Of a stretch of 5,815 nt of DNA, positions 1 through 5,815 are shown piece by piece. Positions within the stretch are counted from its first letter, which is position 1. Every line of letters begins with the position of its first letter. The position numbers were made by a program. Source of the stretch: a virus (taxonomy: Duplodnaviria > Heunggongvirae > Uroviricota > Caudoviricetes); the IMG/VR virus record IMGVR_UViG_2778260969_000004; one strand, given 5' to 3'.

Positions 1-3000
1 AATTTCTTTCGTCCACGGATTAAGGCCGTACTGGTTGGCGACGATCAACAATGCGATGAACTGCGCATCGCTGGCATCGCCTTTAAATGCCGTCTGGCGA
101 AGAGTGGTGATCAGTTCCTGTGGGTCGACAGAATCCATGCCGACACGTTCAGCCAGCTTCCCAGCCAGCGTTGCGAGTGCTGTACTCATCCGTTTTATAC
201 CTCTGAATCAATATCAACCTGATGGTGAGCAATGGTTTCAACCATGTACCGGATGTGTTCTGCCATGCGCTCCTGAAACTCAACATCGTCATCAAACGCA
301 CGGGTAATGGCTTTTTTGCTGGCCCCGTGGCGTTGCAAATGATCGATGCAGAGTGATTCAAACAGGTGCTGGGGCAGACCTTTTCCCATGTCGTCTGCCA
401 GTTCTGCCTCTTTCTCTTCACGGGCGATCTGCTGGTAGTGACGCGTCCAGCTCTGAGCCTCAAGACGATCCTGAATGTAATAAGCGTTCATGGCTGAACT
501 CCTGAAATAGCTGTGAAAATATCGCCCGCGAAATGCCGGGCTGATTAGGAAAACAGGAAAGGGGGTTAGTGAATGCTTTTGCTTGATCTCAGTTTCAGTA
601 TTAATATCCATTTTTTATAAGCGTCGACGGCCTCACGAAACATCTTTTCATCGCCAATAAAAGTGGCGATAGTGAATTTAGTCTGGATAGCCATAAGTGT
701 TTGATCCATTTTTTGGGACTCCTGGCTGATTAAGTATGTCGATAAGGCGTTTCCATCCGTCACGTAATTTACGGGTGATTCGTTCAAGTAAAGATTCGGA
801 AGGGCAGCCAGCAACAGGCCACCCTGCAATGGCATATTGCATGGTGTGCTCCTTATTTATACATAACGAAAAACGCCTCGAGTGAAGCGTTATTGGTATG
901 CGGTAACGCCGCGCTCAGGCGGCTTTGATAGTCATATCATCTGAATCAAATATTCCTGATGTATCGATATCGGTAATTCTTATTCCTTCGCTACCATCCA
1001 TTGGAGGCCATCCTTCCTGACCATTTCCATCATTCCAGTCGAACTCACACACAACACCATATGCATTTAAGTCGCTTGAAATTGCTATAAGCAGAGCATG
1101 TTGCGCCAGCATGATTAATACAGCATTTAATAAAGAGCCGTGTTTATTGAGTCGGTATTCAGAGTCTGACCAGAAATTATTAATCTGGTGAAGTTTTTCC
1201 TCTGTCATTACGTCATGGTCGATTTCAATTTCTATTGATGCTTTCCAGTCGTAATCAATGATGTATTTTTTGATGTTTGACATCTGTTCATATCCTCACA
1301 GATAAAAAATCGCCCTCACATTGGAGGGCAAAGAAGATTTCCAATAATCAGAACAAGTCGGCTCCTGTTTAGTTACGAGCGACATTGCTCCGTGTATTCA
1401 CTCGTTGGAATGAATACACAGTGCTGTGTTTATTCTGTTGTTTATGCCAAAAATAAAGGCCACCATCAGGCAGCCTTGTTGTAAATGTTGCAGGTATCAA
1501 GTAAGTAATTAGATGGAGCGCCATAAATTATGAATTCATCGTTTGTCGGGTCCATCTCCATCTCTTGTCCTATTGCCATTCTTGCGTCAGTGTCGTCAGC
1601 GGCGAAGCATAAAACAGCCCACGCACCCATTGTTTTAAAAAGAACTGCAATTGGCTGTGGTTTTACTGAATTTGCGTTAGCGCGAAAATCACAAATCGCA
1701 CTTTCATGAAATTCCATATATCACCTCAAATAAGTGGTTTGCTGCCTAATTTCATTTTCTGGCGACCAACACAAGTCATCTTGCTGTCAGTTGTTTGGAT
1801 TTACGGTAGCCTGCCGCGTAAAGAGCTACATTTGGAAGACAAGTTGAGCCTTCATATTTTCTGGTCAACGTTGTCAGTGTTATTACTTCTGCTCTCATTG
1901 CTGGTTTGCGTTTGCATTGTAAGACCACTCGTGATGGGGTTGGCCTGTGTAGTTTGTCGGAGCTAATCGCCTCCTGACTTTGCAGGTTTGCGCGACGAGC
2001 TCTACGGCGAGAAGCTGCGGTGCCTTTAAATTCTGTTTTTCTGGACATAGATTCCTCCCGAATAAACTTTGGCGATGCAATCTCGAAGCTCCTCCTGAGA
2101 CGGTTGCTTCGGCATTGCATCCCACAGCTTATGTGGTTGGGTGATCTGGCTTTTCAGCCACGTAGTCGAGAGTCGACGTTGTTTAAAGAGCCTGCCAGTC
2201 TGTTCCATTTGGCTTCCAGCGTCCTGCTGATGGTTAAATAGTACGATATGTACTTCACTTGGTCAATACAATTTGTTCTAAAACGGGGCGTTTTTTTACA
2301 ACGCTTTGTATTTAATAGTATTGTTTTTTAGCGTGGGTGTATTGCCTCGGCGATGTAAGGAGAGATCAGAATTGCGTTGTTTAGTGAGTTGTATCTATTT
2401 ATTTTCCAATAAATACAATTGGTTATGTGTTTTTTTGGGCGAGAGGAAAAGAAAACCCGGCATGGAGGCCGGGTTGATGATTAGCGGTGTGGCCTTGAGC
2501 GATAATGCTCACACACATGTTCAAGATTTCCATGCCTTATCCGTTCATAGGCATTCACATGAACTTCTCGATCGAATTGGTCATTCAAATTGTATGTAGA
2601 CATCTGTGTTTTCTCATATTGGCGGCAGCCCTACAACCGCTTGAAAAAATGTACCAGACGCGCTAAGGTTACATCGCAAATATTGTGTACCTTAACAAGG
2701 GCTCCTTTTGGAGGCTCTGGTTAAACAGCATCAATGTCGGACTGGGGAGTTGGACATTGTGCTGAATGCTTTTGCATTATTGAGGCCGAACGTAAACCTT
2801 CAGAATTGAAGAGATGCGTTCGGCTTCTTCGTTTGTGATATCGTTAGGAATGCCTTTAATCGTTACTGTAACCCCTGATTCAGGTCGAAGAACTACTGGA
2901 AGATCATAGGTATGAAGTGCATTAGCCTTGCCTTCGACTTTTGTTGGTTCGCCAGTCAAATCTTTTTCCTCACTGGATTCTTTGTCAATCGGAGTGTATG

Positions 3001-5815
3001 GGATTTCTTCACCAGACTGGAAAGCTACAAACTTTTTGATTGCACTTTCCATGCGGCTTTTATATGCAGTAATGCTGCTGTCGCTAGGCTTCGGCTCAGT
3101 TGCGTTGATGTATCGCTCGGCAAGCTCATTCACATCAAGCTGAGTAACATCACCCATTTCCTCTTCTTGGACTACCGTTAAGAGGCGAGCGGATGAGTTT
3201 TTTAAATTTCGAGCGGTGGCCTCCTTCATTATGTTCAGCGACATAAGCTCTTCAAGGAAGTCCTTGAATGCCTGCACGCTAACGTTTGACTTTGCCATTT
3301 GCTCTCTCTCTAAGTTATTGACTCAGATCGAGTTTATCCAGGAATTGATTTGCATGCAAGACTCAAGTCTTGAGAATTTCCGTTCAAGATCCACTCTCAA
3401 TAAAAAAGGCCGCACCTCTGCGACCTTTCATCTCCTAAATCTCTTTTCTCTTACCTAAAGAAACAGCAGGCTGGGTCAGCCCTAACAACTTCAAGTGCAT
3501 CGGTCAGAGAAAGCTCCGTGCTATACAGGTGTTATTTCATATCTTTTTGCATCCAATAAATTTTCCATCTGTCCAGAGAGCGGATGCACTTGATTCTTGT
3601 TGATGGCAGGACGTTTTTTCACCTGCCTCACCCTGCCATACAGGACGCTGCTCACCGATATCTATCGTCCGGTCATTGATGTTATAGACAATATCCAGAT
3701 CATTACGGATATACTCAGATGGCCTTATGCTTTCAATGAATAGATGAACTTCTTTTTGACCGCTTGATACTCATGGCCATTAAACTCCATCTATCCTCTT
3801 TACCCAAACGTCTCTTCAGGCCATTGGCTGGCGATAACTTTCCCCACAACGGAACAACTCTCATTGCATGGGATCATTGGATATTGCGGGTTTAGTGGTT
3901 GTAGAAACACCTGACCGCTATCCCTGATCAGTTTCTTGAAGGTAAATTCATCACCACCAAGTCTGGCTATGCAGAAATCGCCGGGCTCAACAGCTTGCTC
4001 AGGGTCAACCAGAATTAACATCCCGTCAGGAAAACTAGGTTTGGAACCTGTTGGTGCGGTCATTGAGTTACCTTCAACCTCAAGCCAGAATGCAGAGTCA
4101 CTGGCTTTTTTGGTTGTGCTTACCAATCTCTCCGCATCACCTTTGGTAAAGGTTCTGAGTTCTGGAGAGAACATCCCAGCCTGAACATGAGAAAAAACAG
4201 GGTACTCATATTGTTTTTTAACTGGGGCCGATGAGTATTCGCCAACAGGTGAAAATGTCCCGTCGTGGTTGAATGATATGTTATCAATACCAAGGTATTT
4301 AAACACCACACCAATATCACTAAGAGATGGATGACGAGATCCGCGCAACCAGTGTCCAATTCCACCCTGCGTCATACCTAGCTCTTCGGCTAACTTCTCT
4401 TGAGTTATGCCGAGCTCTTTCATTCTGGATCTAGCCAGTTCATACCATTTCATTTTCATGTCCTTATTATTACGCTCTGTACTGGAACCATCCATGCACA
4501 ATGTGTATTTTTACTTGTATTTGAGAAGTACATATTGTATTTTTTATTCGTGGTTACTATGGAGGGCATATGAGCAACCTACGAAAATATCGAGAGTCAC
4601 TGAATATCTCTCAAACAACACTTGCTAAGGCAGTTGGATGCACACAGGGAGCTATCGGACATTGGGAATCTGGTCGTCGCTTCCCAGACCTTAAAACATG
4701 CCGTGCTCTTGTTGCGTGTCTAAACAAGTTAGGCGCAAAAGTAAGTCTTGATGACGTGTTCCCGCCGGAGCACAAAGCCGCTTAATAAGCGGAGCCGCTC
4801 TTTGTAACAACGGACATTCGTCCTACGTCGCTGAAAAGCGAGTCCCAAGATATCTGACCAACTAAGGCCATATGCGTTTCCACGCATACCTTTCAACTAA
4901 CTATTCACTATTGGAAATCTTAAGAAATGGAACGAACAAGTTACAGCAAACTATCACAGCGCGACGTTGATCGCGCAGAAACAGATTTACTCATCAACCT
5001 GTCAACGCTTACACAGCGCGGTCTGGCAAAGATGATTGGCTGTCATGAATCGAAGATAAGCAGAACGGACTGGCGGTTTATTGCTTCGGTCTTGTGTGCT
5101 TTCGGAATGGCATCAGACATCAGTCCGATTAGCAGGGCTTTTAAGTATGCGCTTGATGAAATCACAAAGAAAAAATCCCCGGCTGCCACCGAGGATTTTA
5201 AGCAAATTGATATGCAATTCTGAGGGAATTACTGGATCAATCCACAGGAGTAATTATGACAAAACGTCGTAAGAAATACCAGGAAAAAGAAGAGATTCGA
5301 CACCCTGATTCACCTGAGGGATTAGTGGTAGCCGCAGCAAATAACAGGGCGTTCGCAGAGCGCCTTGTTGGTGTTTACAGACTAGCCAAAGCAGGAGTGA
5401 AACATGGGCGTCGTTAAGTTAGCTGATTACAGGCCTCAACTGGAGGTCGTGGAGCATCGCGTGGCAGATACCGAAGATGGTTTCATGCGCGTTGCTAACG
5501 AGATTACCGACAGTCTGCTGATGGCTGATTTAACCGTCCGGCAGTTGAAGGTGATGCTCGCTATCATGCGCAAGACATACGGATTCAATAAGCCGATGGA
5601 TCGACTCACAAACACGCAGATAGCAGCCATGACAGGTATTCATCACACTCATGTTTGCGCTGCCAAGCGCCAGCTTATTGAGCGTAAATTCCTCATTGCT
5701 GATGGCGTGAAAATCGGAGTGAACAAGGTGGTTTCTCAGTAAGCGTACAGCGAGGGCCGTATTGACGGGGATGTGTTATTCAGCTGGCAGTGCTATGCGC
5801 CACGGAAGCAGTTCG

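Follow-up and report, generated by a model that had tools for sequence, protein, structure and literature searches.

The interval between cI and pL in lambdoid phages is an established slot for cargo expressed in the lysogen, and in lambda it holds rexAB. The same slot carries the gene for the kinase Stk in phage 933W, which aborts HK97 infection (cited in PMC3564112), and in phage 434 the gene just downstream of cI encodes Hex, a protein of 158 amino acids (aa) that blocks RecA-stimulated repressor cleavage, lowering spontaneous induction 30-fold (PMC3564112). A further point of comparison is FliZ, which represses by DNA binding via helix 2 of its core-binding (CB) domain (PMC3367168). Here we describe the gene ORF173, an open reading frame (ORF) on the minus strand between cI and pL in a 5,815-nucleotide (nt) stretch of a Caudoviricetes genome (IMG/VR record IMGVR_UViG_2778260969_000004; below, the window). 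Its product is predicted to combine a CB domain with a second small domain, and we tentatively read it, with a confidence somewhat short of even, as a lysogen-expressed DNA-binding regulator that may control its own promoter.

The window is the immunity region of the Stx phage VT2-Sakai/Sp5: positions 2200-3900 are 100% identical to VT2-Sakai/Sp5-type Stx phages (VT2-Sakai, the Stx1 and Stx2 phages of Morioka V526, 1717, 2851, Nil2 and the PA series). The O157:H7 outbreak strain Sakai has Sp5 as its Stx2 phage, and a fold for a reportedly undeletable lysogen gene offers a handle on what keeps this prophage stable or retains it in its host, and with it on Stx induction. A sequence-only reading of the window had presented the gene as undescribed. 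It is in fact on record, odd genetics included, as VT2-Sa orf22 (NP_050521), ORF b63 (Stx1 phage) and ECs1184 (ECs_1184 on the Sakai chromosome), appears in two papers, and is labelled ‘hypothetical protein’ in all records. The present analysis adds the fold assignment, the family's size and architecture, the borders of the cassette, the link between a small ORF and the Hfq-bound RNA EcOnc20, and a neighbouring pseudogene.

ORF173, its family and its predicted fold

ORF173 encodes 173 aa at 2777-3298 (minus strand), between cI and OL/pL (2239-2313) with N (1776-2120) beyond, as the sequence-only reading had it. It is a real gene under purifying selection and no decayed remnant: its ratio of non-synonymous to synonymous substitution (dN/dS) is 0.25 against the Salmonella, 0.22 against the Proteus and 0.15 against the Serratia copies. 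Of 5426 complete E. coli genomes, 234 have the cassette that contains it, with many O157:H7 genomes among them, and a scan of species-representative genomes returned one locus only.

The protein matches the hidden Markov model of phrog_2602, a family without assigned function, end to end (E 3.5e-102, residues 1-173 on profile positions 1-173). Searches of Pfam, NCBIfam, PADLOC and PDB sequences with the protein, with a 143-sequence profile and with the C-terminal domain alone gave nothing above threshold. Below threshold, residues 12-93 align with Phage_int_SAM_1 (PF02899; E 0.047, 14.4 bits against a cut-off of 22.3), the catalytic domain PF00589 is not matched, and 13 of 143 family members scanned give weak matches to SAM-like integrase domains, the best at 7.7e-5. 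A word-indexed search found 44 close clusters, all from Enterobacterales. At E≤1e-3 an exhaustive profile search reached 652 cluster representatives, of which 241 also passed E≤1e-10; almost every one is 160-200 aa long and matches over its whole length. ORF173 thus belongs to a large, unnamed family of fixed two-domain design, for which neither a Pfam model nor a solved structure exists. The earlier statement that no family could be recognised holds for Pfam and NCBIfam and falls for phrog_2602 and this wider family; profile and structure searches together yield phrog_2602 and the sub-threshold Phage_int_SAM likeness, and no known family above threshold.

AlphaFold2, run on a deep alignment, gave a model with a mean predicted local distance difference test score of 90, in which three parts can be told apart: a core-binding-like four-helix domain (residues 8-94; helices 8-21, 26-40, 56-66 and 73-94), a disordered, acidic, low-confidence linker (95-129), and a beta-beta-alpha domain (130-168; strands 130-138 and 143-151, helix 156-168). 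The fold of the N-terminal domain is, in this model, that of the CB (SAM-like) domain of tyrosine recombinases. The other half of a recombinase, with its R-K-H-R-H/W-Y active site, is absent, as the protein ends at residue 173 and residues 130-173 form a beta-hairpin and a helix. An acidic protein with a helical N-terminal part, a linker and a compact C-terminal part had been sketched from the sequence, correctly in outline; the isoelectric point (pI) is 4.85.

The conserved polar and basic positions of the family are T28 and K33 (94% K/R) on helix B and S75, Y79 (100%), K80 and R82 (99%) on helix D. In the structures of Cre, XerD and lambda Int it is helices B and D that enter the DNA major groove. 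DNA binding is therefore supported by the placing of the most conserved polar and basic residues on the DNA-contact helices, and the presence of a CB domain without its catalytic half makes a regulator more likely than a recognisable defence enzyme.

The C-terminal domain has the consensus P-x-P-L-R ... G-L-P-x-D-L-T-x-x-E-A-x-K/R-I-A. It matches nothing in Pfam or the PDB, and a profile search with it found just free-standing proteins of 35-70 aa, with no informative fusions. The idea that it might be an arm-type DNA-binding domain is unsupported, because hhalign showed no relationship between it and the arm-binding domain of the Yersinia phage YP3 integrase; nor did the ORF173 family as a whole show any relationship to that integrase by hhalign.

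Borders, promoter and exchange of the cassette

The features of the interval and of its surroundings, in window coordinates, are as follows.

1776-2120: N
2239-2313: three OL operators and pL (AP005153 annotation)
2444-2475, minus strand: downstream intrinsic terminator, hairpin and U-run, before OL/pL (dG -14.3, z -3.6, 0 of 200 shuffles as good)
2481-2603, minus strand: conserved 40-aa ORF (MSTYNLNDQFDREVHVNAYERIRHGNLEHVCEHYRSRPHR), phrog_21154
~2510-2641, minus strand: Hfq-CRAC cluster EcOnc20 (converted coordinates, uncertainty ~10 nt)
2604-2776, minus strand: structured 173-nt spacer with two hairpins (fold of 2640-2776: dG -41, z -4.9)
2777-3298, minus strand: ORF173 (ECs1184, VT2-Sa orf22, phrog_2602), 173 aa
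3331-3359, minus strand: candidate sigma-70 promoter, -35 TTGCAT (3354-3359), 17-bp spacer, -10 TAAACT (3331-3336), 7 of 12 consensus positions
3357-3389, minus strand: inverted repeats TCTTGA-N10-TCAAGA and CAAGAC-N4-GTCTTG, a putative operator
3402-3429, minus strand: upstream intrinsic terminator, hairpin and U-run (dG -17.8 kcal/mol, z -4.7, 0 of 200 shuffles as good)
3457-3790, minus strand: DUF3024 pseudogene with two frameshifts and one in-frame stop (tblastn)
3800-4495/4501, minus strand: cI repressor, HTH_3 and Peptidase_S24 (Pfam and annotation)
4468-4542: OR operators (AP005153 annotation)

From terminator to terminator (2449-3426), the module is about 85% identical to its counterpart in Salmonella phages (pairwise BLAST), whose cI is unrelated. 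The adjoining segment 3405-3827, comprising the cI 3' end, DUF3024 and the terminator, is common to 933W-type phages, and the upstream terminator sits in the overlap of the two shared segments (3405-3426). This terminator, which closes the cI-DUF3024 transcription unit, is kept in the E. coli, Salmonella, Proteus and SH2026Stx1 loci; its prediction between ORF173 and cI is borne out by the folding energies given above. At the other border, homology to four related loci (L021, L022, L023 and L016) stops at 2473-2476, at the downstream terminator, and homology with same-immunity prophages likewise ends at 2473-2476 and, on the other side, at the cI stop codon. The ‘strong terminator before pL’ of the sequence-only reading folds well, but it belongs to the backbone of phages that carry other cargo and is therefore not private to ORF173.

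In the lambdoid prophages of Salmonella, Serratia, Proteus and SH2026Stx1, ORF173 is without exception on the cI strand and placed between cI and N; in some of them extra cargo (a 345-aa protein, an 81-aa protein or DUF3024) separates it from cI. An identical 172-aa protein stands beside cI proteins that share just 27% identity over 73 residues (L005 versus L006). In E. coli, cI is present at ≥99% identity in 235 records, and the search with ORF173 gave 235 as well, each of them at ≥99%; cI at 95-99% occurs in another 367, and two such same-immunity prophages that were inspected (cI 97-98% identical) have either a BRO protein or a 185-aa protein with DUF1828 in the slot. We reject a role of ORF173 as co-repressor of this particular cI, because identical copies of the ORF accompany cI proteins that share only 27% identity with each other and prophages with the same cI lack ORF173. 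The 933W-type phages, for their part, have DUF3024, a RuvC-like protein and the Stk kinase in the slot. The content of the cI-N interval is thus swapped between otherwise similar phages, and terminators, sharing across unrelated cI and slot exchange all uphold the proposal of a moron-like, autonomous cassette; terminators and presence/absence polymorphism are observed, as is conservation of the position of the promoter, itself a candidate. The cI-pL slot of Stx phages emerges as one built from terminator-bounded modules exchanged across genera.

Outside lambdoid genomes, Yersinia phage YP3, which has a non-lambdoid, myovirus-like genome, encodes a 40%-identical homologue (L017 3001-3531) directly after xis-int and before gin. 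Distant relatives in soil metagenomes and a Sphingomonas metagenome-assembled genome stand alone in varied chromosomal neighbourhoods, and one metagenomic relative adjoins a duplicated guaA fragment.

The promoter of its own that had been claimed for ORF173 is plausible only. With a 7/12 match read from the sequence it stays under the threshold of a promoter scan, but its position and spacing are kept across genera: it is identical in the Salmonella copies, the Proteus copy has TTGCAA-17-TAGAAT at the same position, and the elements are retained where the surrounding sequence diverges. Around it are two inverted repeats, of which CAAGAC-N4-GTCTTG overlaps the -35 element and TCTTGA-N10-TCAAGA lies just upstream. 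They occur in one copy per locus, upstream of ORF173 only, and between E. coli and Salmonella their arms are identical while the spacers have diverged, so that an operator function may be proposed. Direct control of the cassette by cI was dropped, because a search of the window found no cI-operator-like site near the cassette promoter. The sole extra match to the cI operators, a 17-mer at 2411-2427 with four mismatches, lies between the terminator and OL3 and could be a fourth, weak operator or have arisen by chance.

Neither ‘single ORF’ nor ‘stand-alone’, as the sequence-only reading described ORF173, survives closer inspection: the interval also holds the DUF3024 pseudogene and the conserved 40-aa ORF, and ‘stand-alone’ is wrong in detail because ORF173 travels with the latter. 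The pseudogene, which fills most of the 501-bp gap between cI and ORF173, shows 81-85% protein identity to SH2026Stx1 gp21 over three frames, with a stop (tblastn). DUF3024 is intact in prophages of the 933W type, in SH2026Stx1 and in Proteus; in intact form it matches PDC-S43, a candidate defence gene of PADLOC, at E 7e-42. In SH2026Stx1, a remnant resembling the Sakai-type cI 3' end (…EETFG stop; L016 2812-2860) lies between DUF3024 and the conserved terminator, a scar of modular recombination at terminator junctions.

Pfam identifies the other genes of the neighbourhood as Gam, Kil, Ea10-like DUF2528, N, cI, Cro, CII and O. In Rfam nothing matches in the cI-pL interval; elsewhere, the cIII thermoregulator Lambda_thermo matches 797-855 (minus strand, 88.5 bits), as expected in a lambdoid phage.

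The small ORF, the spacer and the published genetics

Between ORF173 and the downstream terminator lies the 40-aa ORF, which differs from its Salmonella counterpart by seven synonymous and two non-synonymous changes (dN/dS 0.06) and shows the motif VxVxxYxRIRxGxLEHVxxHxRSxP. In phage SH2026Stx1, where the large gene is 40% identical, a clear homologue (VYVRSYCRIRFGELEHVRQHFRSYP) comes after it. The 40-aa ORF is also found in Ralstonia P2-like phages that lack ORF173, with an XRE-like gene and a 186-aa gene upstream of it, and in the Serratia and Proteus cassettes a different, Cys-rich small ORF takes its position (L009 5690-5833, L004 6675-6848), that of Serratia with a weak match to treble-clef zinc fingers (E 2e-4). 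On the opposite strand, ORFs at 2505-2666 and 2306-2599 (both plus) match no Pfam family; a Salmonella opposite-strand gene is a FumD-like insert, in a segment without counterpart in the window.

The spacer that parts the two ORFs contains two hairpins. In the first (2726-2764, minus strand) the 14-nt loop is reverse-complemented between E. coli and Salmonella, CUCCCC in one copy reading GGGGAG in the other while the stem is unchanged, which looks like a small palindrome-mediated flip. The second (2644-2720, minus strand) has six U residues after it (2644-2649) and could act as an attenuator, or end transcription, between ORF173 and the small ORF.

Across the end of the spacer runs EcOnc20, an Hfq-bound cluster from cross-linking and analysis of cDNA (CRAC), reported at chromosomal positions 1255628-1255753 of the minus strand in Table S2 of Tree et al. 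2014 (PMC4104026). To place it in the window we applied an offset of +137 to +142, derived from AsxR, whose position served to link the genome versions. EcOnc20 takes in an A-R-N-rich leader and extends over the 40-aa ORF's first two thirds; because it lies on this strand, the strand is transcribed in Sakai cultures. Either the small-ORF mRNA is an Hfq target or the region gives rise to a small RNA.

Two published studies bear on ORF173 itself. Mondal et al. 2016 made in-frame deletions across Sp5 in K-12 and did not obtain those of ORF23 (ECs1184) and ORF21 (ECs1180), neither of which showed any domain; both genes were proposed to be needed for lysogen maintenance (PMC5155283). As the same repressor works without ORF173 in other prophages, a general role in cI repression is not the cause of its undeletability. 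The cause must lie in the cassette itself (addiction), in an interplay with some other Sp5 function, or in a deletion attempt that failed for technical reasons. In the second study, on the Sakai RNA-associated proteome, ECs1184 was a candidate of TRAPP, the purification of proteins associated with total RNA, below significance (false discovery rate 0.065), and a tagged version expressed from the arabinose-inducible plasmid pBAD24 gave a polynucleotide kinase signal no higher than the green fluorescent protein control (PMC7618764, NAR 2025). These data suggest that native ECs1184 is made in Sakai lysogens and that it is not a strong RNA binder. The expectation of expression in the lysogen is thus supported at the level of a suggestion from proteomics, short of a demonstration. 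The second undeletable gene, ECs1180 (1466-1717, minus strand; 83 aa, phrog_2471), has its own terminator-like hairpin (1456-1477) and ranks 22nd among coding sequences in the Sakai Hfq CRAC data, which is odd for a gene of the repressed pL operon.

Candidate functions and known systems

On the reading of ORF173 as a DNA-binding regulator, the cassette (~2449-3426) is a mobile, lysogen-expressed moron made up of terminator, own putative promoter, ORF173, structured spacer, 40-aa ORF and terminator. Its main product is not an enzyme: a CB domain without catalytic domain is joined by a flexible linker to a beta-beta-alpha domain that probably dimerises. Sequence-specific binding through CB helices B and D would serve transcriptional regulation, as in FliZ, with the cassette's own promoter as the likely first target, via CAAGAC-N4-GTCTTG over the -35 element; further phage or host targets would explain why the gene reportedly could not be deleted.

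Several observations weigh against this reading, and the chief reasons for caution about DNA binding are acidity and sub-threshold similarity. All three parts of the phage protein are acidic, with 12 K+R against 16 D+E in the N-terminal domain, which is unusual for a DNA-binding domain; the median pI of the family, by comparison with 4.85 here, is 9.0, and its linker is basic. The sequence similarity to CB domains lies under the Pfam thresholds, Foldseek found nothing better than E ~0.1 in the PDB or BFVD, and hhalign gave the ORF173 family and FliZ a probability of 1.6%, that is, no relationship. The conserved GTCTTG may be just part of the -35 region, the failure to delete ECs1184 is a negative result and comes with no mechanism, and same-immunity prophages without ORF173 indicate that it is not generally required for repression.

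An unlikely alternative takes the undeletability at face value: in an addiction module resembling a toxin-antitoxin pair, ORF173 would be the labile, DNA-binding neutraliser and autorepressor of a harmful 40-aa ORF or EcOnc20 RNA, and its loss would kill the lysogen. The in-frame deletion of ECs1184 was indeed judged lethal (PMC5155283), and the small ORF, under strong purifying selection, is co-inherited even with a 40%-identical large ORF. The cassette moves as a unit between phages of unrelated immunity, and therefore fits a selfish module essential only to itself, which would also explain same-cI prophages without ORF173. A type II arrangement is nevertheless hard to recognise here, as a 173-nt structured RNA with a terminator-like hairpin parts the two ORFs and neither toxin nor antitoxin families are matched, the 40-aa ORF included; the small ORF is replaced by a Cys-rich one in Serratia and Proteus and occurs without ORF173 in Ralstonia phages, while distant relatives of ORF173 stand alone. 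We give a similarly low probability to a broader proposal, in which ORF173 is the founder of a widespread uncharacterised class of DNA-binding proteins (CB domain, linker, beta-beta-alpha; 652 clusters, mostly chromosomal in Proteobacteria), captured as a self-regulated cassette and, in Sp5, restraining a harmful partner, be it the 40-aa ORF, EcOnc20 or another phage function. If true, the cassette would be a prophage addiction or lysogeny-lock module of a new type, in an Stx2 phage of clinical importance.

Defence or superinfection exclusion, the function that the sequence-only reading had proposed, seems to us no more probable than addiction. Alone or together with the small ORF, ORF173 would detect or stop a superinfecting phage, for instance by binding its DNA; it lies where exclusion genes lie, between cI and pL on the cI strand, in a slot occupied by rexAB in lambda and Stk in 933W, the neighbouring DUF3024 matches PDC-S43, and relatives sit in cargo positions such as after xis-int in YP3 or beside the duplicated guaA fragment. 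Yet neither ORF173 nor the 40-aa ORF matches anything in PADLOC-DB 2.0 at E≤1, no nuclease, NTPase, membrane or other effector domain is present, many distant relatives reside in ordinary chromosomal neighbourhoods, and defence genes are normally easy to delete, contrary to the report on ECs1184. What speaks for defence is map position and no feature of the protein, whose only recognisable part is a DNA-binding fold; nothing in it points to defence in particular. More doubtful still is a protein-binding modulator, in which the acidic CB-like domain would act on a protein, shielding the S24 repressor from RecA-stimulated cleavage in the manner of 434 Hex, or acting on an integrase or sigma factor, and so stabilise lysogeny. 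It would suit the acidic surface, the precedent of Hex just downstream of cI, the role in lysogen maintenance guessed by the authors of the deletion study (PMC5155283), and the fact that the partner repressors are all S24 proteins despite unrelated DNA-binding parts; however, distant relatives occur without a nearby S24 repressor, and the best conserved residues are basic and lie on the DNA-contact helices.

A DNA-binding regulator, the reading we prefer, has its nearest parallel in FliZ (183 aa), a flagellar-operon regulator of E. coli and Salmonella, which shares with ORF173 its small size and a CB (SAM-like) domain without catalytic domain and is the sole studied example of this design identified here. 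ORF173 does not show the significant PF02899 or profile similarity that marks the FliZ family: FliZ matches PF02899 at 8e-15, against 0.047 for ORF173. The CB domain is C-terminal in FliZ and N-terminal in ORF173, and FliZ, which is chromosomal and encoded in the fliA operon, lacks the beta-beta-alpha domain. Compared with the CB domains of tyrosine recombinases (lambda Int 75-160, XerD, 3nrw), ORF173 is marginally similar and acidic, lacks catalytic and arm-binding domains, and cannot recombine DNA. MrpR (SPbeta) and SroF (phi3T), from Bacillus phages, retain a full-length inactive recombinase body of ~320 aa, whereas ORF173 has the CB domain only. With lambda rexAB, 933W stk and 434 hex, ORF173 shares map position, the cI strand and expected expression in the lysogen; those genes are co-transcribed with cI, whereas ORF173 is separated from cI by the strong terminator at 3402-3429, past which some read-through from pRM may occur, and has a candidate promoter of its own, and it bears no sequence or domain likeness to the Stk kinase by Pfam or PADLOC. 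Unlike a typical moron, the cassette does not deviate in base composition (G+C 0.44-0.46, against 0.42-0.47 in the flanks), but like the morons of Juhala and Hendrix it is bracketed by terminators, carries a promoter-like element and is present or absent between homologous phages.

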